NCBI GenBank assembly: GCA_965217775.1
Contig: CBDCJH010000002.1
Location: forward strand, 2,080,001 to 2,144,000
Direction of reading: 5' to 3'
DNA length: 64,000 bases
From: Acidobacteriota bacterium
GTDB taxonomy: Bacteria; Acidobacteriota; UBA6911; RPQK01; JAJDTT01
In this document: one piece after another, positions 30,242 through 46,019 of the stretch
Numbering within the stretch: the stretch's first letter is position 1
Layout: every line of letters starts with the position of its first letter
The notes under the pieces: generated by a model
Seen by the model: the letters and a program-made list of their open reading frames with translations, nothing else
Database searches by the model: none
Told to the model about the DNA's origin: nothing
Program-made: the position numbers and the translations under genes

Positions 30242-30337
30242 GCGGGAGCGGCTGGAGAGTCGACTGCGCGAGTTGGAAGTCCTGCAACGTGGGGGTCAGG
30301 TTGCGAGCGCATTCGTCACTGCCGCGAGAGGAGGTGC

Positions 30338-30367
30338 CGAGAGGAGGTGACTGTCCCCCTTCTCTCG
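30338..30367 (+). repeat. Cassette-delimiting palindromic repeat R1
   Basis: CGAGAGGAGGTGACTGTCCCCCTTCTCTCG (one extra C), preceded by an extra left half-site CGAGAGGAGGTG at 30325-30336. Confidence 0.95.
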
Positions 30368-30384
30368 CCCGACGTTACTCTACC

Positions 30385-30414
30385 TTGACCACCCGATTCG
30401 GTGTCCTCTACGAT
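30385..30414 (+). promoter_or_regulatory. Putative sigma70 promoter inside the oxidoreductase cassette
   Basis: TTGACC-N18-TACGAT, conserved upstream of the second copy (~36627-36656). Confidence 0.5.
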
Positions 30415-30450
30415 TCACCCAAATTCCAGCCCCCAGAAAGGACGGCCATC

Positions 30451-31680
30451 ATGGTGAGATCGGAGAGGCGCTCCCAATTCATCAGCCGCCGGATGTTTTT
30501 CCAAAGTGCGAAGGCAGCCGGTACGACCGCATTGACGGCTTCGCTATTCGGAAAATCGTATCGCCCGCTCGAGGCTGGCAAGCAGTTGCGGATCGGTGTG
30601 GTGGGCGGCGGATTCGGCGCCGCGTTTCCCTGGCAGCGGCATCCCAACTGCAAGGTGACCGCGGTCGCTGATCTCAGGGCGGACCGGCGGAAAAGGCTGG
30701 AAGAGAGTTTCGAATGCTCTAACACCTATGCCGATTTCCGTGCCATGCTCAAGGACCCTTCAGTGGATGCAGTCGCCATCTTCACCGGGGCACCCCATCA
30801 CGTTCCGCACTGCGTGGAGGTCATGGAATCCGGTCGGCACGTCATCAGTGCGGTTCCAGCCGCCATAACCTTGGAACAGTGCCAGCAGCTTCTGGAGGCC
30901 GTGAAGCAGACCGGCCAGATCTACATGATGGCCGAAACCAGTTGCTTTCACCCAGCCACCATGACTGCCCGTAGACTGAGACAAGAAGGCAAGTTCGGGA
31001 GAATCTACTACACCCAGGGGGATTACATCCATGACCACGGCACCTACCTGGCGAAGGGGGAGATGCCGGAGTATCTGGAGCGGATGTTCTTTCACGAGGG
31101 TAAGCCGACATGGCGGTATGGCAACGCTCAAGGCCTCTATATCACCCATGCCAGCGGTCCGATCATTCATGTGACCGGCGAGAGCCTGGTTGAGGTCGCG
31201 GCGGTCGGAACACCGATGGACTACCCGTTCTTCAAGGAGAACCGGTACGGTAACCCGTTTGTGAACACCACCTTCTTCTTCAAGACGTCGGGTGGAAACT
31301 CCTCCCGAATCAACATCCACTGGTGGACCTCAGCTCCCGGCCGTGAAGGAGCGGATTATTTTGGGACCGAAATGTCGTTGTTCGAGAGGTGGAAGGGTCT
31401 GCGCCCTTCCGCTTACGTGACCCGTCCTCATTCAGAACCCGAACTTTTGCAGGCAGACCACTCGGCAGAACTGCCGCCGTCGCTGCGGAACGTTGGGGGA
31501 CACGGGGGTTCCCATCCCTTCATCATTCATGAGTTCGTTTCGGCATGTCTGGAGCAACGGCCCCCGTCGGTCGATGTCCATCAGGCCCTGTCCTATACTG
31601 CGCCCGGAATCGTAGGATTCCACTCGGCCCTAAAGGGTGGAGACTGGCTGAAGATTCCCGATTTTGGACCCGTCAGCTAG
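30451..31680 (+). CDS. Tat-exported Gfo/Idh/MocA oxidoreductase, copy 1
   Basis: SRRMFF twin-arginine signal, RIGVVGGGFG, YMMAET, GGHGGSH; 409 aa. Confidence 0.88.
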   Translation: MVRSERRSQFISRRMFFQSAKAAGTTALTASLFGKSYRPLEAGKQLRIGVVGGGFGAAFPWQRHPNCKVTAVADLRADRRKRLEESFECSNTYADFRAMLKDPSVDAVAIFTGAPHHVPHCVEVMESGRHVISAVPAAITLEQCQQLLEAVKQTGQIYMMAETSCFHPATMTARRLRQEGKFGRIYYTQGDYIHDHGTYLAKGEMPEYLERMFFHEGKPTWRYGNAQGLYITHASGPIIHVTGESLVEVAAVGTPMDYPFFKENRYGNPFVNTTFFFKTSGGNSSRINIHWWTSAPGREGADYFGTEMSLFERWKGLRPSAYVTRPHSEPELLQADHSAELPPSLRNVGGHGGSHPFIIHEFVSACLEQRPPSVDVHQALSYTAPGIVGFHSALKGGDWLKIPDFGPVS

Positions 31681-31720
31681 CCGATCCCGGAGAGTCCGGC
31701 GGCTTGGGGAACTCGCGCGG

Positions 31721-31749
31721 CGAGACGAGGTGACCGTCCCCTTCTTCCG
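31721..31749 (+). repeat. Repeat R2
   Basis: CGAGACGAGGTGACCGTCCCCTTCTTCCG. Confidence 0.9.
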
Positions 31750-31961
31750 CGCCGACGGGCCTGGAATCCTGCGCCGCGAAAGGTTGTGGAATAGTAGTTG
31801 ACCAAGCGATTGGGAACTTGCTAGGTTGACCGACCGAATGGGGAAGCCACACTTACCTGAGCCCTTCGATGGGGCCTGCTGGTTTTAAATGGAGGGATGA
31901 GTTCCGCATCTGAAACTAACCGATGAGGATTGGCGGGACTGGTTGACTCGGGAGATTTGAG

Positions 31962-32465
31962 ATGACTCGATACCCGATTGTTTACACCTACAGAGAAGTC
32001 ATTGTGGGCAATGGATACGTGGCGGCCGTGGAAACCACTGGCAGGTGCCTGATGGAGGACTTTGGTAATGAGGATGTCTGGGTCACCGGAGTCGATCCTT
32101 CTGGATTTTCCGCCGGGGCCGACGACCAACAAGCCGCTGCGGAAGCCTTCCAGCGAGAGCACCGTGTCGCTCTCCTTGACATGATTCATGAGGCACCTGA
32201 TTTCGAGAGCTTTAGCACCATGGTCCATGAGTTCCATGCTCAGAAGAGTGTGATCGGCCAGAAGGAATGGTGGGAAGCCGTTGCTCAAGTAAGGGCTGGG
32301 GTAATCACATCTGAGTGGCTGGAGAAAGTGTCGGCCGACACTGAACCCAAGCTCAAGGTTCAGTGTATTTCTTTGGGCAATTCCGAGGAGCCCGTGGAAC
32401 ATCGGGCTGTACCGAGCCCGTCACTCAATCCTGACGAGTATCAGATTAGAAAACTCGCTGCGTGA
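31962..32465 (+). CDS. Hypothetical protein (possibly HicB-like fold)
   Basis: 167-aa ORF with GGGAG RBS; TGATG overlap with a following 26-codon stub. Confidence 0.6.
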   Translation: MTRYPIVYTYREVIVGNGYVAAVETTGRCLMEDFGNEDVWVTGVDPSGFSAGADDQQAAAEAFQREHRVALLDMIHEAPDFESFSTMVHEFHAQKSVIGQKEWWEAVAQVRAGVITSEWLEKVSADTEPKLKVQCISLGNSEEPVEHRAVPSPSLNPDEYQIRKLAA

Positions 32466-32545
32466 TGCCGGCGAAAGGGCAGATTCCCATCAGGCAAGTG
32501 AAGAAAATGCTTGATGAATGTGCCCCCGGATCCGAACTGCCTTGA
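32465..32545 (+). pseudogene. Truncated partner gene ending at repeat R3
   Basis: MPAKGQIPIRQVKKMLDECAPGSELP*, translationally coupled; the stop abuts R3. Confidence 0.45.
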
Positions 32546-32574
32546 GGAGAGGAGGTGACTGTCCCCTTCTCCCG
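32546..32574 (+). repeat. Repeat R3
   Basis: GGAGAGGAGGTGACTGTCCCCTTCTCCCG. Confidence 0.95.
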
Positions 32575-33090
32575 AAGTGGCCCACATGCACGCGCGATGG
32601 CGCTGTCCGCGACCTCGCGCCGGACACTGCCGAGGTCGAGGCTCCCACTGATCCGCAGGCTGGCCGTGCCCGGCCTGAAGATGCGGTCCCGCAAGACCCG
32701 CTTCTCTCATCTCAGTTCGTCGGCAGTCTTCAATTGTCCTTCCTCGACGGAATCCGGAGCGAGACTTGGTTCAGCGTCCCTAACCGTCGGTTCGCCGAAG
32801 GATCGGGGTGCGCCACGTTCTCCAGCCCATGGCAATTGCTGATTGATCGATTACTTCACGTACTTTACACTATATAAGCTCATAATATCACTATAATTTC
32901 ACTCTATTCTGCTATCGTTGATTCAAGTATGTTGCTCGACGCGTTAGAGGCCATTTGTTGGCCTTCGAACGTTTCACAGAGAACTCAGCATGGGAAGCGC
33001 AGGTCACCGCGGGGTACCCGATCCAGTTGAGATCCTAGAGACGATTGACGTGATTACCCGTTCGGCACCCATGTAGTTGAAAAGAATCCA

Positions 33091-34716
33091 ATGAGAAAGC
33101 AGATGAGACCGATTGTCTTGGTTTTCGTGACGGCGTTGTTCGGCTGGGTGACCGGTGCCTCCGGGCTTGCCCAGACCATCTACGAGGTCACCATCTATAA
33201 CCTCACTCGGGGTCAGTTGATCACCCCTCCATTGCTGGCCACGCTCGGCCGAGAGGTTCAGAGCACGGATCAGACCGATCCACCGTATGCGGGCACTGTC
33301 TGGATCGACCCGGACATCATCACGCCATCAGATCCGACTGCGCTCGTGAGCGTGACGGATGCCGGAAGGGGGCAACGGACGATGTTCGACCAGCGGATCA
33401 AGGACTGGATCATGGTCAACGCCTATTTGTTCATGGCCCGATTTGATGATGGGCTGACTGCGGAGATTCAGGTCAATCCAGAGTTCGGCAGTGCGTCCTC
33501 CGCGATGGCAAAGGCAAGCAAATATGGGAGATCCATTGGCCAATTGCCGACCGTTCTTCGAACCAATGTCGAGACGGTCTGGATCCATAAAGGGAATGCA
33601 CCTCTCGGGGGTGGGAACAACAATATTCTCATTCATGTCGATTTTCCGGAAGATTATCTGGAGGAGGGATTGGTCCACGAGGGGGCGCACACTTCCCTGG
33701 ACCCACCTTGGATGGGGATTGTCAATGCCGCCGATTGGCGCGCTGCCCAGACGGCCGATGGCAACTTCATTTCCAACTACGCACGAGACCATCCGGAGCG
33801 AGAAGACATCGCCGAATCGTTCCTGCCGTACTTGGCCGTCCGAAATCGTTCGGCTCGAATCTCCCGATCTTACGAGCGGACAATCTTGGAGACGATGCCG
33901 AACCGGATCGCATACTTCGACCGACTTCTCCAGGCTCAATCGGACAACGCATTGCATCCAATCACGTTGGACCTTCGAAAGTCTCTGGACTTCGCGCATT
34001 TCGGGAATGGCGGGTCCATCACCTCGGACTTGGTGTTGATGAACGTGGAGCCGTCGGCGACTTACCCGGCCGTCTACTTCTACGACGAAATGGGTGAACT
34101 GATCGACCCCGAATCGGTGGTGGAGGTGACGGAAAATCTGGAAGTCCGGGAGGACGGAGCGTTGACCACCCGGACGGGGATTGAGCCTCTGGGTGAACTG
34201 GTGATTTCGACCCATGGGCGAGGGAAGTTGGTGACCGGATCGGTTACGGTCTTCTCCGACATCGTGCGCTCCAATCTCCAGGGCGGCAAGAACCGAGCGG
34301 ATGCGGGTGGCGCGGCCCGCATCGGCGGGGTCCTGCGGTTCGACTCCCCGTCCCTGGGCGTGGCCGGCGTGGGGGCCAGTGCGCCCGTAAACGACGTCAT
34401 TTTCCCGGCGCGTCGCCAAGAGGGCGGAATCAACACCGGAGCCGCGATCCGGAACCTGGGAGAGAATCGGATCGATGTGAGTTGCCAATTGATGAAAGCA
34501 GGCGCCGTATTGGAGACGAAGGACATTTCACTGGCCGGTAACGGACAGACGGCCAAGTTCATCCACGAGTTGTTCACCCAGACCGATACGTCCGATTTTG
34601 TCGGGTCGGTTCGTTGCACCGCTCCTGAAGGGGAACGGTTCACCGGTGTCGCCCTGGAGATGGATGCCGATAGCCGAATCTTTACGACTTTGCCGGTGGT
34701 TCCCGTCCCGCAGTGA
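33091..34716 (+). CDS. Secreted HExxH zincin-like protein with one copy of the shared C-terminal domain
   Basis: Signal peptide; LVHEGAH and NYA...EDIAESF; C-terminal DFAHFGNG...IFTTLPVVP homologous to the giant proteins. Confidence 0.8.
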   Translation: MRKQMRPIVLVFVTALFGWVTGASGLAQTIYEVTIYNLTRGQLITPPLLATLGREVQSTDQTDPPYAGTVWIDPDIITPSDPTALVSVTDAGRGQRTMFDQRIKDWIMVNAYLFMARFDDGLTAEIQVNPEFGSASSAMAKASKYGRSIGQLPTVLRTNVETVWIHKGNAPLGGGNNNILIHVDFPEDYLEEGLVHEGAHTSLDPPWMGIVNAADWRAAQTADGNFISNYARDHPEREDIAESFLPYLAVRNRSARISRSYERTILETMPNRIAYFDRLLQAQSDNALHPITLDLRKSLDFAHFGNGGSITSDLVLMNVEPSATYPAVYFYDEMGELIDPESVVEVTENLEVREDGALTTRTGIEPLGELVISTHGRGKLVTGSVTVFSDIVRSNLQGGKNRADAGGAARIGGVLRFDSPSLGVAGVGASAPVNDVIFPARRQEGGINTGAAIRNLGENRIDVSCQLMKAGAVLETKDISLAGNGQTAKFIHELFTQTDTSDFVGSVRCTAPEGERFTGVALEMDADSRIFTTLPVVPVPQ

Positions 34717-34739
34717 CGAGAATCAATTGAAAAGACGTC

Positions 34740-34850
34740 CTTCCGATAGCCGATGCCGCCGCTCTCCGTGCCGACCTCGGTCTGATACTTGAGGATAAAG
34801 GTGATCAGGTCGGCCATCTCCTGGTGGTCGATGTTCTCTTCCAGACTCTT
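34740..34850 (-). pseudogene. 3' fragment of a paralogue of the PVC-type heme protein at 46733-49900
   Basis: LEENIDHQEMADLITFILKYQTEVGTESGGIGY versus LEETINHQEMADLISFILKYQYEVGTESAGIGY. Confidence 0.8.
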
Positions 34851-34862
34851 GTAACGGGCCCG

Positions 34863-34891
34863 CGAGAGGAGGTGACTGTCCCTTTCTCCGT
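34863..34891 (+). repeat. Repeat R4
   Basis: CGAGAGGAGGTGACTGTCCCTTTCTCCGT. Confidence 0.95.
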
Positions 34892-34907
34892 TTCACTTGA
34901 CTTACAG

Positions 34908-35189
34908 TCAGCAAAACGACCCCATTACGTAGATACCACCGAGAAGCGCCCCAGTGAGAACAATTGCCGGAATGTATCCTCCCGATGGTGCCGCCGGTGG
35001 TGGTGCCGATGGTGCCGCCGGTGGTGGTGCCGACCTGGAGTTTAGCCATCGGATCGACGCCCAAATCAGCAGAATCACGAAGACCGGAAGTAGAGCCAGT
35101 GCAGCAAGATACAAAAATGCAAGAATCCCCAGGCCACCGACCCCCAAGATTACCGCTATCGCTGCCAGTAACTCTGCTATCTCTGCCAT
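34908..35189 (-). CDS. Small hypothetical membrane protein
   Basis: GAGGGGGG RBS, hydrophobic segments, internal 24-bp tandem duplication at 34982-35029. Confidence 0.5.
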   Translation of the reverse strand: MAEIAELLAAIAVILGVGGLGILAFLYLAALALLPVFVILLIWASIRWLNSRSAPPPAAPSAPPPAAPSGGYIPAIVLTGALLGGIYVMGSFC

Positions 35190-35521
35190 GGCGAAGCCCC
35201 CCTCAGTATTTGCCCCTCTTCTCGCCGGTCGCCTTCCACCATCCGAACGCCAGAGCTGCCCGTTGCTCCCGGTCGGGATGCTCGAAGTCATGCGCGAATA
35301 GTCGATCAGGTCTGGAAGCCGGACCCTTGTAGCGTAGATCGAACGCAGCCGCGACGAGCCGAACGAGGAAGCTTCTCACTTGCCATTGATCCGCCTTGAG
35401 ACCCGGGGTCCGCTGCCGAGACATGCTACCCAGGATTGCAGACAGTTGGAACCGGGGGACCTCCAGTAAATCCAGGCTGGAGTTGATTGCCGATCAAATT
35501 CGACCTGGAGCATCCGTTTCC

Positions 35522-35778
35522 TCATTCTGCCGCCTCGTAGAGCGATGAAATCCCGAACCCCTGGACCTCGACGCCCTCAGAGTAGGCAGTCGACATAGCG
35601 GGAGATTTCCAACGCAGGATGACCGCGACCGCATGCGCCGGTATACCGTTCAATGTGAGCTGCTGAGCCAGACCCCCTCTCAGGGAATGACCGGAGACCC
35701 TGCCCCGGATGCCCGATTGACGTGCCCTTTTCTTGATCACGTCTCGAACTGCCCGAGCTACGAGCTTCACGTGGAGAG
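35522..35778 (-). pseudogene. C-terminal fragment of a tyrosine recombinase, cut at R5
   Basis: VIKKRARQSGI..RVSGHSLRGG.AQQL...RWKSPAMSTAY (HxLR box and catalytic Tyr region); no N-terminus. Confidence 0.75.
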
Positions 35779-36174
35779 TGAAGAGAGGTGACTGTCCCCT
35801 TCTCTCGTCCCCGTTGAAGTCAACGAGACATCGAGCCTCACTTGGTCGTAAGGCACCCGCGGGACCAGCCTCCCACGCGCTCCCCGTTGCAATTCCACGA
35901 TCCCGTATTGAGACATCGTCTTCAGAGTTCGCGAAAGGTTCGACTTGCTTCGTCCGGCCATCTCCGCGAGCTCCGTGAGCGAACCCGGTTGCTCTCGGGC
36001 AATCAGCTCCAGGAGATGCCTGTTGTGCTCGGACAGCAACTTCGCAATGCTCTCGATCGAGGTGAACCACACCTTCGGCTCACCCTTCGCGGGCGTGTGC
36101 TCGCCGCGGGCAATCGCCAGGGTGCGCGCCTTCATCTGATCATAACCGGCAATCCCGATCTCTAACGTCTTCAT
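35767..36174 (-). CDS. HTH transcriptional regulator/antitoxin (HVO_A0114-like)
   Basis: WFTSIESIAKLLS...PGSLTELAEMAGRSKSNLSRTLK; the C-terminus reads through R5. Confidence 0.75.
   Translation of the reverse strand: MKTLEIGIAGYDQMKARTLAIARGEHTPAKGEPKVWFTSIESIAKLLSEHNRHLLELIAREQPGSLTELAEMAGRSKSNLSRTLKTMSQYGIVELQRGARGRLVPRVPYDQVRLDVSLTSTGTREGDSHLSSLST
35779..35807 (+). repeat. Repeat R5
   Basis: TGAAGAGAGGTGACTGTCCCCTTCTCTCG. Confidence 0.9.
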
Positions 36175-36246
36175 GGAATCGAGCCTCCTTTCTCCAAGAA
36201 CTTGGTCCACTTCTTTCCAGAAATCCTCGAGGAGCGTCGCTGCGTC

Positions 36247-36543
36247 TTAGTATTCATAGGGCCGGATCGTCCGCAGCCGATGCCGATGGTCGCCCTCTGC
36301 CCGTCGTCGCCTGCCCGGGCCCGACCGCTCCCTAACCGGGTGCGCATTATCGATTCCAACCAATCTGGCGCCATCCGGCGCGTGCAGCGTCAACGAGTAC
36401 CGGAGGCCGTGCGGTCGTTCGGGAGTCACCTCGGTCCGCACTACGATGAACTTCACCCAATACCCCGTGTCGTCCACAAACAGCGTCTCGCCGTGAAGGT
36501 CGAGCAGGGTGTCCAGTCCGGGATCTCGGCCCGGAATCGTCAT
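36247..36543 (-). pseudogene. DUF6516/TumE-like putative toxin, probably with a premature stop
   Basis: RPHGLRYSLTLHAPDGARLVGIDNAH..DHRH; after the TAA the frame continues DAATLLEDFWKEVD. Confidence 0.65.
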
Positions 36544-36580
36544 CGATTGATGTTATCAGATAATGATAACCGAGGACGGG

Positions 36581-36609
36581 CGAGAGGAGATGACTGTCCC
36601 CTTCTCTCG
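36581..36609 (+). repeat. Repeat R6
   Basis: CGAGAGGAGATGACTGTCCCCTTCTCTCG. Confidence 0.95.
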
Positions 36610-36693
36610 CCTTGCGTTACCCTGCCTTGACCGCCTGATTCGGTGCCCTCTACGATTCACCCCAGATTCCAGCCCACAGAAAGGACAGCCATC

Positions 36694-37923
36694 ATGGTGA
36701 GATCGAAAGCACGATCCCAATCCATCAGTCGCCGAATGTTTTTCCAAGGTGCAAAGGCAGCTGGTACGACAGCATTGACGGCTTCACTATTCGGAAGACG
36801 GTACCGCCCGCTTGAGGCTGGCAAGCAGTTGCGCATCGGCGTGGTGGGCGGTGGATTCGGCGCAGCGTTTCCCTGGCATCGGCATCCCAACTGCAAGGTG
36901 ACCGCAGTCGCTGATCTCAGGGAGGACCGCCGGAAAAAGATGGAAGAGCGGTTCGAGTGCTCTAACGCCTATGCGGATTTCCGCGCCATGCTCAAGGACC
37001 CCTCAGTGGATGCAGTCTCCATCTTCACCGGGGCGCCCCGTCACGTTCCCCATTGCGTGGAGGTCATGGAATCCGGTCGACACGTTATCAGCGCCGTTCC
37101 GGCCGCCATAACCCTGGAACAGTGCCAGCAGCTTCTCGTGGCCGTCAAAAAAACCGGCCAGATCTACATGATGGCCGAAACCAGCTGCTTTCACCCATCC
37201 ACCATGACTGCCCGCAGACTAAGGCAAGACGGCAAGTTCGGGAGAATCTATTACACGCAGGGGGACTACCTCCATGACCACGGCACCTACTTGGCGAAGG
37301 GGGAGATGCCGGAGTATCTGGATCGGATGTTCTTTCACGAGGGCAAGCGAACATGGCGGTACGGCAACGCGCAAGGCCTCTATATCACCCATGCCAGCGG
37401 TCCGATCATTTATGTGACCGGCGAGAGCTTGGTTGAGGTCGCGGCGGTCGGAACGCCGTTGGATCACCCGTTCTACAAGGAGAACCGGTACGGCAACCCC
37501 TTCATGAACACCACCTTCTTCTTCAAAACGTCGGGTGGAAACTCCTCCCGAGTCAACATCCACTGGTGGACCGCAGCTCCCGGCCGTGAAGGTGCGGACT
37601 ATTTTGGGACCGAAATGTCGTTATTCGAGAGGTGGAAGGGTCTGCGCCCTTCCGCTTACGTGACTCGTCCTCATTCAGAACCCGAACTTCTGCAGGCAGA
37701 CCACTCCGGGGAACTGCCGCCGTCACTGCGGACCGTTGGGGGACACGGGGGTTCCCATCCCTTCATCATTCATGAGTTCGTTTCGGCATGTCTGGAGCAG
37801 CGCCCCCCGTCAGTCGATGTCCATCAGGCCCTGTCCTATACTGCGCCCGGAATCGTAGGATTCCACTCGGCTCTGAAGGGTGGAGACTGGCTGAAGATTC
37901 CCGATTTTGGACCCGTCAGTTAG
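36694..37923 (+). CDS. Tat-exported Gfo/Idh/MocA oxidoreductase, copy 2
   Basis: 409 aa, collinear and highly similar to 30451-31680. Confidence 0.88.
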   Translation: MVRSKARSQSISRRMFFQGAKAAGTTALTASLFGRRYRPLEAGKQLRIGVVGGGFGAAFPWHRHPNCKVTAVADLREDRRKKMEERFECSNAYADFRAMLKDPSVDAVSIFTGAPRHVPHCVEVMESGRHVISAVPAAITLEQCQQLLVAVKKTGQIYMMAETSCFHPSTMTARRLRQDGKFGRIYYTQGDYLHDHGTYLAKGEMPEYLDRMFFHEGKRTWRYGNAQGLYITHASGPIIYVTGESLVEVAAVGTPLDHPFYKENRYGNPFMNTTFFFKTSGGNSSRVNIHWWTAAPGREGADYFGTEMSLFERWKGLRPSAYVTRPHSEPELLQADHSGELPPSLRTVGGHGGSHPFIIHEFVSACLEQRPPSVDVHQALSYTAPGIVGFHSALKGGDWLKIPDFGPVS

Positions 37924-37963
37924 CCATAACCGGTGAGCCCGGTTGTTTTGGAAACTCGCGCGG

Positions 37964-37992
37964 CGAGAGGAGGTGACTGTCCCCTTCTCCCG
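37964..37992 (+). repeat. Repeat R7
   Basis: CGAGAGGAGGTGACTGTCCCCTTCTCCCG. Confidence 0.95.
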
Positions 37993-38099
37993 GTTATGGC
38001 CGCCAATTTCCTCCGGGCTATGGCAGGAAGAATAGAGTCGTTTAAACTGCACTCATAGGCTGAAAATGTAGCACCATCCCATCGGCGAGGAGAGAGTCA

Positions 38100-38780
38100 A
38101 TGGCATCGGCACTCAAGAACTTGTCGCCAATTCGTGCTTGCGGCGAAGTCTTGCCGCCACCGCAGCTATTCGAGAATATCCCGATGCTGCACTGGTTTTT
38201 GACAGAGGTGCTTGAGGATTGGCTGCGTGCAGTCGGTCCTTATCAAGAGCAAGTTGATAACGCGGAGGACGAAGCAGCGATGATATATGCGTTCGTGGAT
38301 CTCCAATCCATGTTCTTGAAGTGCCTATTCTCCTATGCCTTCTTCTTCGTTTCAGCTGATAACGCTTATGCGTTTTTTTACAAGAAGTTGAACCGCGCAA
38401 ACTTTCTTTCAGGTCTGAGATTAAAGCATGGAAAACCACCGAAAAAGACGTCATTGGTTTGCAAACTCCGTCGGATCAGAAACATTTCCATCGCGCATTT
38501 TCCGTCTGACGATGCCAATCCCATTGATGCTTTCGCTGGTATGTCCTGGACACCGATGAGTCTGTCGTCATCCAGTGGTGGTCGCGTGGATCTTGAGAAA
38601 CTTACCTTCGTACCAGGTCGATTTCGCGGGATAGATGCATCAGGCCAAAGTATCGAATCTGAAGACTTTGAAATTTCTGGAATTAGGACCCTGCACCAGC
38701 ATTGTATGTCGTACTTGGAGCAATACGATCAGATTTGCTGCGACTATTTGGGTGGACTAAAAATCGCAATTGGAACTTGA
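38100..38780 (+). CDS. Hypothetical protein with a HEPN-like R-x5-H motif
   Basis: GAGGAG RBS, lower GC, helical-looking sequence, LRRIRNISIAH. Confidence 0.6.
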   Translation: MASALKNLSPIRACGEVLPPPQLFENIPMLHWFLTEVLEDWLRAVGPYQEQVDNAEDEAAMIYAFVDLQSMFLKCLFSYAFFFVSADNAYAFFYKKLNRANFLSGLRLKHGKPPKKTSLVCKLRRIRNISIAHFPSDDANPIDAFAGMSWTPMSLSSSSGGRVDLEKLTFVPGRFRGIDASGQSIESEDFEISGIRTLHQHCMSYLEQYDQICCDYLGGLKIAIGT

Positions 38781-38804
38781 AACGCGTCGGCAACAAAATA
38801 CGGA

Positions 38805-38833
38805 CAAGAGGAGGTGACTGTCTCCTTCTCCCG
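38805..38833 (+). repeat. Repeat R8
   Basis: CAAGAGGAGGTGACTGTCTCCTTCTCCCG. Confidence 0.9.
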
Positions 38834-38914
38834 CCCGTCAAAGCTGGAGACGAAATTGTTGGGTGGAGTTCCGGAAACCCCGGTGTTCCACTTTGACCGA
38901 CAAGAACTCCCATC

Positions 38915-39568
38915 ATGCTTGACATCGCGAGAGTTATGAGCGAACTGGCTAGCGATAGGCCGGTGTTTCATTCCGAGGCCGACTTCCAGCACGCGTTTGC
39001 GTGGCACATTCACTCCTTAATGCCGAACGGCAAGGTTCGTCTGGAATACCGACCCTTACCGGACGAAGCGGTGTACCTGGACCTCTGGTTTCCTGCTATC
39101 GGAGTTGTCGTGGAACTGAAGTACTACACCCGAGAGCTTAAGCTTGAACACGACAGTGAATTGTTCTCGCTACGCAATCAGGCAGCGATGCCACCCCGCC
39201 GATATGACTTTCTAAAAGACATTCAACGGCTTGAGCGAGTGTGCAGAAAGCGGAGGGACATTCGAACCGGTTTCGCGGTCCTGCTGACCAACGATTACCT
39301 CTATTGGACACAATCGGCACGGGACAATGTTGTGGATGCCGATTTCTGCCTCTACGCCGGACGGCTAGTTGCGGGAGAAATGGATTGGTCGATGGGCGCT
39401 GCCGACGGAACGAAGAGAGGCCGGGAAAAACCCATCTGTCTTGCTGGTTCCTACGAACTGCAATGGCGTGATTATCCGGCGGAGATTGGCGACGCACGCC
39501 ATGGACAGTTTCGTTACCTAGCGGTCCAGGTGTCCCCGCTGGGCTGTGGTGGCCTCGCTCCCGAATAG
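38915..39568 (+). CDS. Putative PD-(D/E)XK nuclease-fold protein
   Basis: FHSEADFQ...YLDLW...VVELKY...DFLKDIQRLE. Confidence 0.6.
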   Translation: MLDIARVMSELASDRPVFHSEADFQHAFAWHIHSLMPNGKVRLEYRPLPDEAVYLDLWFPAIGVVVELKYYTRELKLEHDSELFSLRNQAAMPPRRYDFLKDIQRLERVCRKRRDIRTGFAVLLTNDYLYWTQSARDNVVDADFCLYAGRLVAGEMDWSMGAADGTKRGREKPICLAGSYELQWRDYPAEIGDARHGQFRYLAVQVSPLGCGGLAPE

Positions 39569-39772
39569 GGTATGGCAAGGTATTTTTTGGGACTACAACC
39601 CACAACCCTAACTGGCTGATTTTCTGCGCCGGACGTGGTCCTGTGCCCCACTCTTTCCGGCCTTGGTGAGTTCACTCCGACGAAATAATCGCATTTGCCC
39701 CTTCTGGGATCATTCCAACCAGGAGGTCGATGCCTGAGGCGCCGGACCCACAAATGCGGAGGAAGGGCCAAA

Positions 39773-39801
39773 CGAGAGGAGGTGACTGTCCCCTTCTCGT
39801 C
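39773..39801 (+). repeat. Repeat R9
   Basis: CGAGAGGAGGTGACTGTCCCCTTCTCGTC. Confidence 0.95.
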
Positions 39802-39863
39802 CGATTTTGGACCCGTCGGTTAGCCGATCCCGGAGAGGCCGGCGGCTTTGGGAACTCGCGGGA
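39801..39863 (+). pseudogene. 63-bp 3' tail of the oxidoreductase cassette (third, vestigial copy)
   Basis: Aligns without gaps to 31658-31720 (PDFGPV.* plus trailer). Confidence 0.9.
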
Positions 39864-39892
39864 CGAGACGAGGTGACTGTCCCCTTCTCCCG
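39864..39892 (+). repeat. Repeat R10
   Basis: CGAGACGAGGTGACTGTCCCCTTCTCCCG. Confidence 0.95.
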
Positions 39893-40116
39893 CGCCCGGT
39901 TGCGGCGGGGGAGCGGAGCTGGCCCACGCGCTACAGTGCGAGACCGAGGGCCGATTTCGATGATCTGGAAGCTACCACTATTCAACTCGGGCTCCCGCAC
40001 CCGAGCTACTGGCCCGAGACTCGGGCAAGGGATAGACTGGGGGACAGGAGGGTAGTTCTCTGTGGGCTCGTCAGGCCGAGTGGGAACGTGTCGAAACAGC
40101 GGGTTGAGTAAAGACT

Positions 40117-41136
40117 ATGGACGTGAGTTTACGGGTTCCTGCGATAGAAAAACTCTTAGATTATGCCGCTAGTGGAATCGGGGCGATCGCCGGACCGATG
40201 TTAGCCAATTGGAGAGCATCCAGAGAAGGAAAGGCTCGACTCACTTCCGCCCATGTTGATGCGGAAGTGCGCCACATTGAAACGAAATCAAACACCCGAT
40301 CCTTGCAGATCATCGCCAAAGCTCAGGCCACGGCTCGGCAATCTATTGACACAACGATTGAGTCAGGGCACGGCATGGTGAAAATCACCCGTGACGACAT
40401 TACCCAGTCAATTGAGTTTCAGGGGCGAAAACGCCTAGCAAATGCCGGATCCGTCGTAGAGAGTGCTGCCGATGAGCTTGGCGGCAAGGAAGTTTCAGGT
40501 CACGAGCCTAACCATGACTGGACGGCGCGAGTCTTTAACTACATACAGGACGTATCTTCAGAAGAGATGCAGTTGCTTTGGGCGAAAGTGCTCGCTGGCG
40601 AGATTCAACGACCCGGGAGTACGTCCATTCAGGCTCTAAGTATTCTGAGAAATCTTGACCAGACCACGGCTAGACTTTTTGAAAAGCTCTGCTCCGCCTG
40701 TGTCTCGATTAGGGTGTCTGGAGATCATTTCATGGATGCTAGAGTTCCTTCATTGGGTGGTCATGCAGGACACAACGTCCTGCGAGATTACGGACTCAGT
40801 TTTGATAACCTCAATGTACTCAACGAGCATGGGCTCGTAATCTCCGACTACAACTCTTGGTACGACTACAGGCTGTGCATAGGGATTCGTATAGGCGAAC
40901 CTGTGCAGCACACCGTCCGAATTCCCTTCCGTTTTCAGGGGCGAAATTGGACTTTGAAGCCGACAACCGAACAGGCTGTAGACCAAGAATTCAAGTTATC
41001 GGGTGTAGCTTTGACCGGATCAGGACGGGAGCTGTCAAGGATTGTCGATTTGGTGCCCGTGAACAAGTACGCTCAAGCCCTAATGAATTTCTTTCAAAAG
41101 AATAATTTGAAAATGATTGAGGTTGATAGAGCCTGA
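40117..41136 (+). CDS. DUF2806-like protein
   Basis: DWTARVFNYIQDVSSEEMQLLWAKVLAGEIQRPGS...LTGSGREL. Confidence 0.75.
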   Translation: MDVSLRVPAIEKLLDYAASGIGAIAGPMLANWRASREGKARLTSAHVDAEVRHIETKSNTRSLQIIAKAQATARQSIDTTIESGHGMVKITRDDITQSIEFQGRKRLANAGSVVESAADELGGKEVSGHEPNHDWTARVFNYIQDVSSEEMQLLWAKVLAGEIQRPGSTSIQALSILRNLDQTTARLFEKLCSACVSIRVSGDHFMDARVPSLGGHAGHNVLRDYGLSFDNLNVLNEHGLVISDYNSWYDYRLCIGIRIGEPVQHTVRIPFRFQGRNWTLKPTTEQAVDQEFKLSGVALTGSGRELSRIVDLVPVNKYAQALMNFFQKNNLKMIEVDRA

Positions 41137-41531
41137 TAGATACGCTTGTCATTGAAGTCGGCACGGACGTTACCGGTCTTTGGGAAGGCTCCAATAAACC
41201 CCTTTTGTGCCCTGAGGGCTTCCCTGGAAGCACCCAGTTTGTTCAATGGGTCATTGCCTCGAACCATGAAGGGTCGGTTGGTTCGCAAGCGAATACTGTG
41301 AGCCGCGCCACCGTTTCTATTCAGCCAAGTCATCGTCTCTTTCAGCAATTCCACCATTCCCACTCATGTGTGTGTCTGCTGCGCCTTCGAAGAAGTGGTC
41401 ACCAAGGAGAAGCCGACCCCAAACTCAGCCATGACGAATGTTCTCTAGCATAACGGTCCGTGCTGAACAGGACAGATCATGTGCCAACGACAGTGCAGCG
41501 CACTAGGATTGCACGGTGGGATGGTTCCTCA

Positions 41532-42550
41532 ATGAGTATCGAGCAGCGCTTCGATGTTCCCGTCATCGCCGCAATGGCGCTCCGGGAGAAGCAGATCCAG
41601 CAGAACTACCGCCCGATCATCAGTGTCCATAAATGGTTCGCCCGCCGGCCGGGAACCTTGTTTCGCGGCCTCGTACTTGCAGAATTCGGCAAAGACCCAC
41701 TGAAAAATGCTTTCTTTCGAGCAAACAACTTTTACGGACTCCGGATCGCCGACTCGTTCATGGGCGGCGGCACGCCGCTGATCGAGGCGAATCGCGTTGG
41801 CTGTGACGTGGATGGTTGTGACGTCAACCCGATGGCGGCCTGGATCGTCCGTGAGGAGGTCGAACACATTGACATGCCGGCCTATGAACGGGCGGCTGAT
41901 GCGCTCACCGCTGCCCTCCGCTCGGAGATCGGCCGATACTATCGGACTTCCTGCCCCCACTACGGAGATGAGGACGTCCCGGTGGAATCCTTTCTGTGGC
42001 TCAAGCAACTCGATTGCGAAGCCTGCAGAATGCCCTTCGATCTATTCCCTGGCTACCTTCTCGCCAAGAATAGGCGGCACCCCAAAAATGTCCTGGTCTG
42101 TCCAACGTGCGGCGATCTCAACGAAGTCCGGTCGGATCTTGACACTTATGTCGATGCCGTGTTCGGGTGTCTCACGTTCGAGTTTCTCGTCATGCCCAAG
42201 GGCGACGGGTTTGTCGAGTTTCCCGTGTTCGAGAACGGGTACGAAGCCCTGAAGCGCGCCACCGCCAGCTTCCGCGAAGTCACCCCTGGTACAGTCGCAG
42301 CGGTTGTATTCGAGACGCCAATTTTACTGATCGTCCTTCGGTGCATGCTGGGGTTCACACCGCCGGAGTGGACTTAATACGCAAACAGGCACACCGGCGT
42401 CAACGTGACGCAGGGCGCGGCCCGTGCGATCGACCGGAAAATCCGCATGAAACCCGAGACGGCCTTGCCTACGAAGGGAAGTGTGACCGAACGGCGCATT
42501 CGCGCGCTGATCGCTGCCGCCTGTCATGCCCTGGAGTCCGGGGTTCGTGA
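41532..42550 (+). pseudogene. DUF1156-type adenine DNA methylase N-terminus fused to a fragment of another gene; internal stop, cut at R11
   Basis: VHKWFARRP, DSFMGGGT SAM motif, CxxC Zn ribbon, no catalytic DPPY. Sequence character changes at ~42130. TAA at 42375, then the frame stays open into R11. Confidence 0.7.
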
Positions 42551-42579
42551 GGAGAGGAGGTGACTGTCCCCTTCTCCCG
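42551..42579 (+). repeat. Repeat R11
   Basis: GGAGAGGAGGTGACTGTCCCCTTCTCCCG. Confidence 0.95.
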
Positions 42580-43023
42580 GGTGGGTCTGGCGGGGACGAA
42601 GTGGGCGCGGCACAGAGCTGGACGATGCGCCTGAAACTGCTGAAGATCGGGGCCCAGGTCCGGGTCACGACGCGCAAGGTCTGGTTGTCGTTTTCCGAGA
42701 GCTACCCCTATGCGGCGTTGTTGAGAACGGCTCTGGCGCAAGTGCAAGCCCTCCCGCTTCGCTGTTAGCGAGAACTCGCCCGATGCAAGACGTCCGGTTG
42801 GGAATCCGCGGGATGGACTTTGCCCTGGAGTCGGTTCATTGGGGGTGAAACGTCGCTCATGAGTGCCGGCGGGAGGCCAAATGCTTCTGGACTTTGCCGG
42901 ATTCCGGCATTCGTCAACGCATTCGAGCCGACGGCATGGTTCTCGATTTCATGTGGACAAGAAACCACTGAAATGCTGTTAATAAAACCGATTGTCGCGT
43001 CCGTGTTGAGAAATTGCGGCTAG
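42580..43023 (+). mobile_element. 3' remnant of an IS1380-like element
   Basis: TMRLKLLKIGAQVRVTTRKVWLSFSESYPY transposase C-terminus (stop at 42768); probable element end TGAGAAATTGCGGCTAG at ~43007-43023. Confidence 0.7.
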
Positions 43024-43073
43024 CAGTTGAAGGACGAATTGCTCTTGGGGTGTTGTCAGTTCTTCGGGTTCGG

Positions 43074-43550
43074 TCATGCTGTCCATTTGCAAAAGATGAG
43101 GCAAAGATTGACGATCATGGTAACGAAGAATAGTAATAGGAATGAAGTTGGCAGGATTGTCTCGACAACTGTTAGCTTTGCGTAGCTTCGATATTCCTTC
43201 CCTTCTTTCAGCAGTTCCCATTCTCGTTTGAAGAACGGATAAGGCAACTCCTTCTCCATTTCTTGCAAGGCTTTGAACTTTCCGGAGTTGAGTTGTCTGT
43301 AGGATCGAATAACAATGTACCACGAGAGTGAAAGGAAAATCCCCACGACTGAAGCGACGGCCAGGACGGTTGGCACGGGTCCGTCACCAAATCTGACTAA
43401 GGCTCCGGTAAATGCTACGAATGTTGTAAGCATCCCGGCATAAAGCCGATTGGCTCCCTCCCGACGTTGACTTACTCTGTCAGCAAGTCGAGCGTGAAGC
43501 TTGTAGATTTCCAATAGCGTACTGGATTGCGAATCGGGAGGATCGGTCAT
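43074..43550 (-). CDS. Small multi-TM putative defence effector (RipA/SLATT-like)
   Basis: LLEIYKL..ADRVSQRRE.ANRLY, two TM segments, SYRQLNSGKF..L.EME..LP, a further TM segment; 3 bp downstream of the TIR gene. Confidence 0.65.
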   Translation of the reverse strand: MTDPPDSQSSTLLEIYKLHARLADRVSQRREGANRLYAGMLTTFVAFTGALVRFGDGPVPTVLAVASVVGIFLSLSWYIVIRSYRQLNSGKFKALQEMEKELPYPFFKREWELLKEGKEYRSYAKLTVVETILPTSFLLLFFVTMIVNLCLIFCKWTA

Positions 43551-43553
43551 TGT

Positions 43554-43964
43554 CTAACCCTGCCTTCTAATCGCAGCGACGATACTCTCGGTATTCCAGT
43601 TAACAATCTCGTCGGCGGCCACCGTAACCACCGTTGACATATTCGTATTTCCCCACGGTTTAATTGCGATTATAGGTTTGGGGGACGAGAAACCGTTTTT
43701 TGCTATACCAATCTCTTCTTTTATCCACTTGCTATAAGTGGAGTACACTCCGGCCATGATAAGTATGACGTGACATGGTCTCATATGGTTTGTGATTGCT
43801 TCTCGAAGCTCGTCCTCATTGTCCGCGTCGTGGACTGGATCATCTTTGGGAACCGAATAGTCCCTGAACGAGAAGTAGGCTCTAGAATTCAAAAGATTTA
43901 TAAGTCTATCGTAATTCTCTGAGTAGGACCATGAATGGCTAATAAACAAATTGTAAGTTTTCAT
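43554..43964 (-). CDS. TIR domain protein (MTH538/DUF1863, ThsB-like)
   Basis: YNLFISHSW...DYSVP...SKWIKEEI...KPIIAI. Confidence 0.85.
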   Translation of the reverse strand: MKTYNLFISHSWSYSENYDRLINLLNSRAYFSFRDYSVPKDDPVHDADNEDELREAITNHMRPCHVILIMAGVYSTYSKWIKEEIGIAKNGFSSPKPIIAIKPWGNTNMSTVVTVAADEIVNWNTESIVAAIRRQG

Positions 43965-44209
43965 TCCTGTCTCCTTGAACGGTAGTCTCACCGTCGATTA
44001 CTGGGCAATCTGCTCACTTTACTACAATGGACTGACGAATACCTCAGTGACTTTCCTGAGTCGAAGGGAGTATCATGAACTGAGGACGGGCAATGACTGT
44101 CTGACTCCTGTAGCTCAGTCAAAGGTTCAGCAGGAGTCGCATTCTGGTTCTACCTGTCATCCTTCCCTTACCACAGGTTGGAGTCTGGCTTGAGTTTGTC
44201 AACTAGGAT

Positions 44210-44639
44210 TTATAATTCCCAATTCAAAACATTCTCGCCGAAATCTCCAAGAGAAGAGATCCGGTTCCTCAAGGCGGCAAGAGGGATGGAGTCAAAGTAG
44301 TTAGCAAGATCAGTGATGACGACGTAGTTGTAGGATCGCGCGAACTTCCAGATCCGTTCCTGGAATCGCGGCCACAGAATCCACCAAGGATACGCGAATG
44401 TGCCGTCAACCTCCTCGGGAGTCGGGAGAGCATGATTCTGGGAGTAGTAGGCGTTCGGATGGGGCTGATCAGCCCTGATCTCCCTCTCTAGAACATTGAC
44501 CAGAGTCTGGAGAAGAATAGCGTCTGCCGCCGACGGCAGAACCAATCGCCGAGGGATTCCTCCCCGTTTCTCTAGCAGTATGATCTCGGGTGGGGACGGG
44601 CGATACTGACCTGAAAGGACTTCACTTCTTAGCAAGGAC
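44210..44639 (-). pseudogene. Reverse transcriptase fragment (N-terminal motifs only), cut at R12
   Basis: SGQYRPSPP...EKRGGIPRRL..P...D...VVITDLANYFDSI; no PQG or YxDD motif. Confidence 0.75.
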
Positions 44640-44668
44640 CGAGAGGAGGTGGCTGTCCCCTTCTCACG
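44640..44668 (+). repeat. Repeat R12
   Basis: CGAGAGGAGGTGGCTGTCCCCTTCTCACG. Confidence 0.92.
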
Positions 44669-44758
44669 CGCACGCACGAGTGTTGGAACCTCTCCGCTGT
44701 GTCCAATGGAATCCAGGAGACGACCCAAGGGTGGCGAGAGTGTACGTGAGAACGATGG

Positions 44759-45031
44759 TCATTCGAGCGCTACGAGGCCCAGGATGACACTCATGACGAT
44801 GGCTGTGATGAGAGGGATAACGAGGTAGTAGAGGGTGAGGATGGCCAGGAAAACGTAGAGTATCCACTTGACAGCCCAGACCATGCCGCCGAGATGGCGA
44901 GCTAAGCCAGCCGGGGGAGCTTGTCGGCGCGGCGGCTGGCGCTGTTGGAGGGCCTTCCGCAGATTCTCCGCCTCGCGGCGCATCCTTTCCGCCCGCGAAG
45001 GGCCGGGCGCTGGCGGACATCCTCGAACCAC
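44759..45031 (-). CDS. Small hypothetical membrane protein or fragment
   Basis: Two hydrophobic C-terminal segments; start uncertain. Confidence 0.35.
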   Translation of the reverse strand: MVRGCPPAPGPSRAERMRREAENLRKALQQRQPPRRQAPPAGLARHLGGMVWAVKWILYVFLAILTLYYLVIPLITAIVMSVILGLVALE

Positions 45032-45259
45032 TGGCCTACATCTGGCGGGTCTTCCCCGTCAGCCTCCCTGAAAAGGCCCGAGAAGTAGTGGTCACGGACC
45101 TGCTCAACCAGAACAACCACCAGCCGTCCATTAGGTCGTCTGGTTGGCAAGTTCCATGGGTCATAAACTAAGTATAGCCCGCCTCAGAACGGACAATCCA
45201 CTTCCCCCACTGTGGACTGTCTCCTCTGGGGCCACAAAAAACGTGACCGATCTCCGTGG

Positions 45260-45287
45260 CGAGAGGAAATGACTTTCCCCTCTCTAA
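45260..45287 (+). repeat. Repeat R13 (degenerate, array-terminal)
   Basis: CGAGAGGAAATGACTTTCCCCTCTCTAA. Confidence 0.75.
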
Positions 45288-45377
45288 AGGGCAACAGACA
45301 TGGCTTTCAAAAACTCTTTTTTGCGCCTTTCGATTTCCTTCCCGTTGATCAGGATTTTCATAGATAAACTCCAATTT

Positions 45378-46019
45378 TCACTGTCGTCGGTCGGCGCCAC
45401 GCAGAGAGGTGGAAAGCTCCGGTGAGGGCGTTTGCAAACTCCATTCGGTCTTGTCGTGCAGACGATCTGGCGGTTCGGAAAGCAGCTCCCAGTGGTTCTC
45501 AAAGGCCAATAGATGGCGCTCGATCATCCTCAAATGGGCCAAGTGTGGGTGACCCGGTGCAATCGGAAAGCGCAAATGAAAGGGAAATGAGGGACTGCGT
45601 TGTGAGCCGTCCTTCTTCGGCACGGGGTACCAATAGTCGAAGTGCTTCTGAGTGAGCTTTTCTGCAAGGGCCACGGGCAGGACGACGAACCTGGGCGAAG
45701 CGCCATAGCTCACTCCGACAACGATGTCGGCCACGAGTGGACTGGGTTTAGAGTTGAACATCGGCTTGGAGCCATGAAGGTAACCGGTCCCGTAATAACC
45801 GAAGGCCAGTGACAGAGAGCGGGGATTCTCCGAGGTCGCATTGTTCGCTGTCTTCACTTGTACGGAGACTCGATGCAACCCCCTGATGGCCACCAAATCA
45901 GCATTGGATGCCATTTGCGCGGCATCAAGACGTACAGGGTGCCAACCATGTTCGATCAACTGCTTCTCGACTAGCAACTCGCCCAGTCGGCCAATTAGCT
46001 TAGTGTCCATGGTGGCCAT
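45378..46019 (-). CDS. Putative PD-(D/E)XK nuclease-fold protein
   Basis: IGRLGELLV...NADLVA...SVQVKT. Confidence 0.6.
   Translation of the reverse strand: MATMDTKLIGRLGELLVEKQLIEHGWHPVRLDAAQMASNADLVAIRGLHRVSVQVKTANNATSENPRSLSLAFGYYGTGYLHGSKPMFNSKPSPLVADIVVGVSYGASPRFVVLPVALAEKLTQKHFDYWYPVPKKDGSQRSPSFPFHLRFPIAPGHPHLAHLRMIERHLLAFENHWELLSEPPDRLHDKTEWSLQTPSPELSTSLRGADRRQ

Follow-up and report, generated by a model that had tools for sequence, protein, structure and literature searches.

We analysed a 64,000-nucleotide (nt) stretch of DNA from an Acidobacteriota bacterium (assembly GCA_965217775.1, contig CBDCJH010000002.1, positions 2,080,001 to 2,144,000 of the forward strand), hereafter the window, in which a short repeat recurs through an island of variable gene content and genes break off at the repeat edges. 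We propose, with moderate confidence, that the repeats are repetitive extragenic palindromic (REP)-like elements of a system that includes a multicopy 311-amino-acid (aa) HUH/Y1 transposase of the REP-associated tyrosine transposase (RAYT) type, and that repeat edges become joined to sites of low specificity. Alignments place the breakpoints, both between species and between paralogues, at the edges of repeats. We classify the system as REP/RAYT-like and not as an integron because the repeat motif flanks the HUH gene in inverted orientation, the predicted fold of the protein is RAYT-like, and we found no intact integron integrase gene (intI) in the window and no attC features in the aligned copies.

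Genes break off at the edges of an island repeat array

The array consists of 13 direct copies (R1 to R13), all on the + strand between 30326 and 45281, with a unit of ~30-45 nt built on the core GTGACTGTCCCCTTCTC. A repeat finder reported two families, D1 (12 copies of 41 nt) and D3 (13 copies of 27 nt). Allowing up to three mismatches, the 15-mer GAGGTGACTGTCCCC is matched 15 times in the window, while 100 shuffles averaged 4.03 matches and never exceeded 11. No Rfam family matched 29000-47000 at E values up to 1. The island that holds the array (29-47 kb) has a GC content of 0.46-0.62, compared to ~0.65 in the flanks; it is dispensable and rich in defence and toxin-antitoxin genes.

An earlier note, made from the letters of the window alone, had listed seven gene ends at or within a few bases of a repeat. 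Each was compared with an intact paralogue or homologue, and on this comparison six of the seven are true truncations that lie 0-26 nt from the repeat core (Table 1). The stub at R3 derives from an 82-aa gene, an intact copy of which is found at a paralogous two-gene locus (L152; open reading frames (ORFs) 182-685 and 685-933); homology to this gene ends at 32529, 5 nt before the R3 unit. The fragment left of R4 is 85% identical to 46798-46914 and ends at most 13 nt before the R4 left arm; its parent, a heme-binding protein gene, flanks the island at 46733-49900. At R5, only positions 102-166 of the 172 positions of the Pfam Phage_integrase domain remain, and the homology starts 0-3 nt from the repeat unit. 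The IS1380-like tail comprises the last 52 residues of the transposase (Pfam positions 383-434 of 435) together with the end of the insertion sequence (IS), and it starts 0-1 nt after R11. Compared to a 612-aa homologue in genome G024, the reverse transcriptase (RT) fragment is without ~61 N-terminal residues, with its junction 16 nt to the left of the R12 core.

The remaining two ends are less drastic or less certain. The antitoxin ends in ...LTSTR* in the relatives G007, G002 and G003; against these, it has lost its last codon and its stop at the junction 35812/35813 and gained 14 repeat-encoded residues, which puts the cut near the stop codon and not mid-gene. The methylase-linked ORF ends on a TGA inside R11, and since no homologue was found in the genome or in Pfam, its truncation is unproven.

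Several further cases were absent from the earlier list. A sensor-kinase fragment begins ~15 nt past R3, and the oxidoreductase tail between R9 and R10 starts 2-3 nt past the core. Outside the island, the - strand carries a motif of the left-end type at 5258-5266, and a C-terminal fragment of the HUH transposase begins some 20-odd nt further on. In this stretch (5258-5438) the element itself has been truncated beside its own repeat, by the same kind of cut.

Table 1 Positions of the repeat copies, gene fragments and neighbouring genes in the window.
Feature	Coordinates	Strand	Remark
HUH transposase C-terminal fragment (aa 261-310, 96% identical)	5289..5438	+	Outside island
R1 repeat unit	30326..30366	+	Left arm tandemly duplicated
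Oxidoreductase (GFO_IDH_MocA) cassette A with both flanking repeats	30328..31749	+	
R2 repeat unit	31709..31749	+	
26-codon stub of 82-aa gene	32465..32545	+	Stop codon inside R3 left arm
R3 repeat unit	32534..32574	+	
GAF/HisKA/receiver hybrid kinase paralogue, N-terminal fragment	32590..32939	-	Cut at R3 right side
Heme-binding protein gene 3' fragment	34733..34850 (118 nt)	-	Cut at R4 left side
R4 repeat unit	34851..34891	+	
Tyrosine recombinase C-terminal fragment	35522..35769	-	Cut at R5 left side
R5 repeat unit	35767..35812	+	Ends in partial second GTCCCC
TumA-like helix-turn-helix (HTH) antitoxin	35767..36210	-	Reads 14 codons into R5
TumE-like toxin gene	36247..36543	-	
R6 repeat unit	36569..36609	+	
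Oxidoreductase cassette B with R6 and R7	36572..37992	+	91% identical to cassette A
R7 repeat unit	37952..37992	+	
R8 repeat unit	38793..38833	+	
R9 repeat unit	39761..39801	+	
Oxidoreductase cassette tail, last ~50 nt	39801..39851	+	Between R9 and R10
R10 repeat unit	39852..39892	+	
DUF1156 anti-phage-associated gene remnant	41460..42377	+	Internal ~1.8 kb deletion at ~42146
Methylase-linked ORF	42192..42563	+	In-frame stop at 42375-42377; reads into R11
R11 repeat unit	42539..42579	+	
IS1380-like element 3' end	42580..43027	+	Cut at R11 right edge; transposase tail 42601-42768
Reverse transcriptase fragment	44213..44632	-	N-terminus lost at R12 left side
R12 repeat unit	44628..44668	+	Core variant GTGGCTG
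R13 degenerate copy ATGACTTTCCCC	45255..45281	+	3 mismatches

We then counted homology ends across 30000-46000. Among 62 distinct BLAST end points, 18 lay within 30 nt of a core, compared to an expected 6.3% (binomial P ~3e-8, for end points that are not independent of one another). The junctions showed characteristic offsets of ~9-26 nt to the left of GTGAC and 2-12 nt to the right of CTTCTC. They join a repeat edge to arbitrary non-repeat DNA, in agreement with the one-ended, low-specificity target use that the earlier note had suggested. Its expectation that the junctions would lie close to repeats and that the fragments would not be whole genes holds for the 0-26 nt cases above; it does not extend to the DUF1156 and RT 3' cuts, which lie elsewhere, or to some of the cassettes, which are complete.

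The repeat is a genome-wide family associated with an HUH/Y1 transposase

With up to two mismatches, the 17-mer core has 116 matches in the 6.43-Mb genome, in 34 clusters; 23 of these hold at least two copies, and 20 of the 23 are uniformly oriented. The 12-mer GACTGTCCCCTT occurs 236 times at up to one mismatch, and a 20-mer query yielded 91 matches compared to 1 for a control read backwards. The consensus, GAGAAGGTGAC-T-GTCCCCTTCTC, is nearly palindromic in an 11-1-11 layout and has a mismatch that is conserved; mutually pairing variants of the outer arms occur (GGAAAAA/TTTTTCC, GGCAAG/CTTGCC and CGGAA/TTCCG). Overall, a hairpin is only modestly supported. Of the 116 copies, 14 are followed by a partial duplication of the right half and only 3 are preceded by one. 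Elsewhere in the window (52802-52825), a lone palindrome-like site, GGGGGACAAGACTGTCCCCC, has GACTGTCCCC in common with the repeat; a chance match and another variant are both possible.

The gene for the 311-aa transposase is present in 11 near-full-length genome copies with 85-96% DNA identity, in units of 1.3-1.4 kb that contain no TnpB partner. An opposite-strand repeat motif lies 129-300 nt upstream of the ATG in all 11 copies, and a same-strand motif lies ~160-320 nt past the stop in 10 of the 11. The same layout was observed at loci from 11 other genomes, upstream in 11/11 and downstream in 10/10 assessable cases, including homologues at 54-58% identity.

The protein scores 37.3 bits with Pfam Y1_Tnp (cut-off 23) and matches the NCBIfam model REP_Tyr_transpos (NF047646) at E=1.7e-13 and 50.7 bits, under the 80-bit cut-off of that model. 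In 49 aligned homologues, the HUH histidines H63 and H65 are conserved in 44 and 43 sequences, respectively, and the catalytic tyrosine Y162 in 46. The AlphaFold model (predicted local distance difference test, pLDDT, 92) found its best fold match in the Protein Data Bank (PDB) in 4er8, the E. coli RAYT bound to a REP hairpin (E=1.1e-6; template modelling (TM) score 0.75 on the target), followed by IS608, ISDra2 and IS200 TnpA; a phmmer search of PDB sequences with the transposase gave no match. A C-terminal extension of ~130 aa is conserved, and among 50%-identity clusters the full-length architecture is matched by 87 at E<=1e-30 and by 737 at E<=1e-10. In G000, three transposase copies lie within 10 kb (G000:C2:1201935-1211083), one of them with an in-frame TAG, and two of the three sit in a 4.6-kb segment that is seen twice in overlapping extracts.

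Other candidates were considered as partners of the repeat. Two further Y1_Tnp matches in the genome (C2:5635604 and C2:4665981) were rejected, with no motif within 3 kb of either. The Y2_Tnp profile (PF04986) had no match in the genome, and control genomes were equally silent. An all-against-all search for a recombinase common to the neighbourhoods of arrays was swamped by shadow ORFs of GC-rich DNA. The earlier note had given HUH/rolling-circle transposases, next to secondary-site recombination, as examples of agents with such target use; the HUH part fits, with a multicopy HUH/Y1 gene flanked by the repeat, and the rolling-circle part is not supported, the associated enzyme being of the Y1 REP type and not a rolling-circle Y2.

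The motif and the enzyme also travel together across genomes. GTGACTG-type motifs were found in 8/8 same-genus genomes (16-55 matches each), and these relatives carry 2-11 transposase copies. G023, from another family, has 57 motif matches, and its two transposase copies, 79% identical to our query, lie beside motif arrays. In the sister genus, GTGACTG-type matches number 0-1 and the transposase homologues are ~53% identical; a one-base GTCTG variant, GTCTGTCCCCTTCT, is found there instead (6/6 genomes, 3-18 matches each). In the window's genus, 2/8 genomes had a single match to this variant; the genome of the window itself had none. That the motif variant changes in step with the transposase clade supports a functional pairing of motif and enzyme. 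In a scan of contigs, records with many matches were titled as metagenome-assembled genomes (MAGs) of Acidobacteriota and, in a few cases, Planctomycetota, and single matches elsewhere were close to chance level (our own estimate is ~69).

The arrays in G023 (L002-L005, G023:C1:1418000-1493000) differ in form. There the core builds dense non-coding arrays with 30-200 nt spacing, a different left context (CTAAATGA/AAATGG) and a 193-nt higher-order tandem unit, and they look more like mosaics of the bacterial interspersed mosaic element (BIME) or NIME type than like cassettes.

This distribution bears on the reading of the island as an integron-like or other tyrosine-recombinase cassette array, with repeats that serve as attC-like or core sites and secondary-site recombination that cuts genes. 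The island has some of the expected looks: direct repeats part gene-sized modules, many of them toxin-antitoxin or defence modules and mostly co-oriented, the inverted arms and central spacer of the repeat resemble a recombinase core site, and a piece of an integrase lies within the array. That piece, however, spans 65 residues and is the only integrase sequence in the window, and the nearest Phage_integrase match lies ~76 kb away. The copy alignment shows neither a conserved core of the GTTRRRY type nor an attC architecture of 57-141 nt. The motif is present 116-236 times in more than 30 places, includes the dense non-coding arrays of G023, and flanks the HUH gene and not an integrase. We consider an integron-like origin effectively excluded, and the earlier note was right to set integron cassette biogenesis aside.

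Island content differs between species, with probable erosion, duplication and copying at repeats

The island lies between flanks that are conserved in the genus, and its content differs in every species compared. A repeat-oxidoreductase-repeat module is intact also in G007, G003 and G002, and G007 holds in addition a 216-nt internal oxidoreductase piece between two repeats. Aligned with the intact module, this piece and the 50-nt tail in the window are probably remnants left by erosion of a resident cassette.

A second type of change involves the heme-binding protein gene in the flank. Three 3' fragments of this gene were found in G006 and one in the window. They break off at differing points within the gene, in each case 11-26 nt to the left of a repeat core. 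The intact heme gene contained no repeat in any of the 9 genomes searched. Deletion cannot yield such copies, whereas joining the left edge of a repeat to a random point on a sister copy can.

The third type concerns IS sequences. The junction of repeat and IS tail recurs at C2:5169741 with 80% identity, and another IS truncation point abuts a repeat on its left side at two places, C1:25703 and C2:1813635. These recurring junctions have probably been copied between arrays. The earlier note had suggested that the array captures ragged DNA; such capture was not demonstrated. The fragments whose origin is best resolved trace to resident DNA that was eroded or duplicated, namely the oxidoreductase cassette, the heme gene in the flank, an IS of the same genome and a paralogous host kinase.

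Single repeats were also compared between genomes. Homology of the left flank to G007 stops at 30324/30325, next to R1, and an orthologous R4 junction was found in G006. Solitary copies elsewhere in the genome showed a homology break within 25 nt of the core in 4/5 comparisons with relatives. One locus exists in an empty and a filled form, the difference being a composite of 200-490 nt with two inverted motifs. A deletion between two inverted copies is bordered by 7 nt of microhomology, CTGAGAA.

Such comparisons are among the grounds for an alternative that we regard as unlikely. Small units would insert at many sites, island genes included, and later recombination between direct copies, either homologous or transposase-mediated, would delete the interval; insertion followed by repeat-by-repeat recombination would leave one repeat flanked by remnants of two different genes, the left part of the first and the right part of the second. 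The unit can indeed act as a discrete entity with exchanged flanks: the R3 stretch 32543-32574 is 100% identical to the R11 stretch 42548-42579 (32 nt), and the 43-nt R5 unit is common to the window and G007, where both of its flanks differ. A ~200-nt repeat-bearing segment is present in G000 and G005 and not at the same intergenic site in G006, G002, G003 and G007. The arrays, moreover, are direct repeats, a geometry that yields deletions. What speaks against this alternative is that no repeat was seen between two contiguous halves of one gene, that the heme fragments require a breakpoint in a gene that is repeat-free in all 9 genomes, and that the sole empty-site case is the composite described above and not a single unit.

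Public sequence runs were also consulted, and only Logan contigs of one study (X2-X5) contain the stretch. Contigs with zero differences span R4 and R5 (34799-35850), R7 to R9 (37896-39860) and R12 and R13 (44088-45601); these may come from the source sample. With several junctions recurring in independent genomes and with these spanning contigs, assembly artefacts are unlikely. Joints between repeats in Logan contigs were considered as evidence of excision and rejected, because their sides are at most 31 nt long and they therefore represent graph ambiguities; the contigs break at repeats. In X4, metagenome contigs run from the left flank at 30324 into G007-like sequence and not into R1, so that both arrangements co-occur in this data set, possibly from two species.

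A proposed mechanism and its weighing

In the mechanism we propose for the REP/RAYT-like system, the transposase would bind the repeat hairpin in single-stranded DNA and cut beside the repeat. The cut end would then be joined to a poorly specified site on the same or a sister molecule. If the partner site lay nearby on the same molecule, the DNA beside the repeat would be deleted and the repeat would survive; such adjacent deletion would account for the eroded oxidoreductase cassettes and for the truncated integrase, RT, IS, kinase and stub genes. If it lay on the sister copy, a segment would be duplicated, which would account for the heme-gene 3' pieces that each end at the left edge of a repeat. 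Modules bounded by repeats could also be copied between arrays. In a dispensable island these events would be tolerated and would accumulate, giving the look of a ragged cassette array.

The excerpts of PMC3333891 that we drew on describe comparable behaviour of E. coli TnpA-REP in vitro, a REP-anchored cleavage of low sequence specificity: REP is needed for binding, single-stranded DNA is cleaved 5' or 3' of REP, only a CT dinucleotide is required, many cut sites are found on a 4.1-kb circle, and strand transfer occurs. As far as these excerpts go, the mechanism we infer matches the published cleavage (PMC3333891).

A more far-reaching reading is that REP-type hairpin and multicopy HUH transposase together make up an integrase-independent cassette system, the natural equivalent of an integron run by an HUH enzyme. 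A module would be whatever lies between any two same-strand repeats, and it could be cut out, be copied from one array to another or have one of its ends joined to arbitrary DNA. Through single-strand cleavage and strand transfer, variable islands of defence and toxin-antitoxin genes would grow, be shuffled and erode, and ragged gene ends would follow. We put this forward as a tentative and rather doubtful possibility.

Several observations weigh against our proposal of a REP/RAYT-like system acting at the repeat edges. The link of the transposase to the junctions is one of association. Folded as single-stranded DNA, six repeat windows did no better than shuffled sequence (z -0.8 to +1.9), covariation between mirror pairs exceeded all shuffles at one position only, and the left arm of the repeat differs in G023. 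The ~12 junctions with known parent sequence have no dinucleotide or short motif in common, and thus none such as the NCG that the earlier note proposed to look for. Repeat orientation showed no bias by replichore as defined by GC skew (by our own count ~18+/14- on one arm, ~44+/27- on the other), although lagging-strand-guided insertion, as in IS608, would predict an orientation linked to the replichore. The transposase copies are 85-96% identical to one another, which leaves recent activity unproven. The genome is metagenome-assembled (completeness 97.9%, estimated contamination 7.5%).

Two island truncations, furthermore, lie away from repeats. The DUF1156 remnant consists of residues ~1-229 joined in frame to the last ~14, as judged against a 71% identical paralogue (G000:C2:1056322-1058767), and its break is ~400 nt from any repeat. 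The RT fragment is also without ~400 C-terminal aa, and its 3' cut at ~44210 has no repeat. These two cuts indicate that ordinary decay also operates in the island. The RT itself is intact in another family (612 aa, 77% identical to the fragment; L155, G024:C1:1549285-1552698), and the window-fragment query found no homologue in 8 genus relatives, which suggests a horizontal origin of the fragment.

The doubt about the fold touches equally on an explanation that dispenses with the transposase, in which replication stalling at the hairpin or host nucleases would be followed by end-joining or slippage from the repeat. The palindromic sequence, the stutter duplications of the right half in 14/116 copies and the CTGAGAA microhomology at the one deletion between inverted copies would all suit such fragility. 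Predicted hairpins that are not stabler than shuffled sequence do not, and neither does a repeat that is usually intact at the junction, with characteristic offsets that are not to be expected from random resection. Fragility would also leave unexplained why the motif is so tightly linked, in phyletic distribution and in position, to the HUH nuclease. We therefore judge hairpin fragility improbable, and we rank the alternatives, in falling likelihood, as insertion with recombination, hairpin fragility and an integron-like array.

REPs and RAYTs are widespread, and their effects on genomes in vivo are largely inferred; the island offers natural junctions at base level. These junctions recur in several species, duplications of a flanking gene included, and form the footprint that would be expected from the in vitro cleavage by E. 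coli TnpA-REP. If confirmed, our proposal would mean that REP/RAYT-type systems remodel variable, defence-rich islands, it would extend REP/RAYT biology to a phylum in which it has not been described, and it would provide a compact pair of enzyme and hairpin for study. A limited literature search found no description of the motif or of RAYTs in Acidobacteria, which does not establish their absence from print; PMC5581495 has 0 occurrences of 'Acidobacteria'. For annotators, the island holds a warning that short ORFs beside these repeats are often gene stumps.

Other contents of the island

The complete genes among the cassettes are both oxidoreductase copies and the ORFs 38100-38780, 38915-39568 and 40117-41136. 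Between the IS tail and the RT fragment, at 43074-43991 on the - strand, a gene of the 8xMP octameric-membrane-protein family (158 aa) has a ThsB-type TIR-like gene (145 aa) directly upstream, and the pair is a possible two-gene defence module. A BrnA-family antitoxin gene (29783-30112; NCBIfam E=3.4e-35) marks the left border of the island, where ~318 nt present in the window (29538-29856) are not found in G007. The 127-aa ORF on the - strand that separates R4 from the integrase fragment contains a tandem repeat of 12 nt (CCGATGGTGCCG/CCGGTGGTGGTG) at 34982-35029.

Comparison with known systems

The island resembles integrons and clusters of attC sites lacking integron-integrases (CALINs) in that direct repeats separate promoterless-looking gene modules, toxin-antitoxin cassettes among them, and in that content varies among related species between conserved flanks. 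It differs in having no IntI and no attC architecture, in repeats that are spread genome-wide and tied to an HUH gene, and in cassette borders that cut genes. attC sites are made up of R''/L''/L'/R' boxes and a GTTRRRY core; in an alignment of the 13 copies, neither the boxes nor the core were conserved.

Elements of the IS91/ISCR group, which carry Y2 HUH enzymes, undergo one-ended transposition, and replicative IS elements produce adjacent deletions. The island has a comparable look, with one fixed end joined to arbitrary neighbouring DNA, adjacent deletions and co-mobilised flanks, as in the repeat/IS-tail junction that is present in two arrays. Unlike in IS91/ISCR, the fixed end here is a ~30-45 nt repeat without a gene of its own, and the Y2 search was null, with silent controls.

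With IS200/IS605 elements (IS608, ISDra2), the system has in common a Y1 HUH fold and, presumably, subterminal hairpins recognised on one strand. IS608 cleaves at a distance from its hairpin that is greater on the 5' side than on the 3' side, and this asymmetry may be likened to the offsets of our junctions, ~9-26 nt on the left and 2-12 nt on the right. In contrast to IS200/IS605, the ends around the transposase gene are inverted and not direct, there is neither a TnpB in the unit nor a replichore bias, and no defined tetra- or pentanucleotide target was found.

The closest likeness is to REP/BIME-RAYT systems such as E. coli TnpA-REP and the REPINs of Pseudomonas: short imperfect palindromes in more than 100 copies, mostly extragenic, an HUH/Y1 gene between inverted repeat copies, and a predicted fold nearest to 4er8. 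There are also differences. The protein has 311 aa with its ~130-aa C-terminal extension and falls below the NCBIfam RAYT cut-off. The repeats form same-orientation arrays that bound kilobase-sized gene modules, and not tight inverted doublets. The aligned copies have no conserved GTAG or CGTC tag next to the stem, tags that are described for REPs in the portion of PMC3733652 consulted. RAYTs are typically single-copy according to excerpts of PMC5581495, compared to 11 copies in the window's genome; a single-copy, vertically inherited gene is likewise not the pattern here, given these copies and one that is 79% identical in a different family (G023). In conclusion, although several of the features by which RAYT groups have been described are absent, the layout of this system and its proposed mode of working are of the REP/RAYT type.

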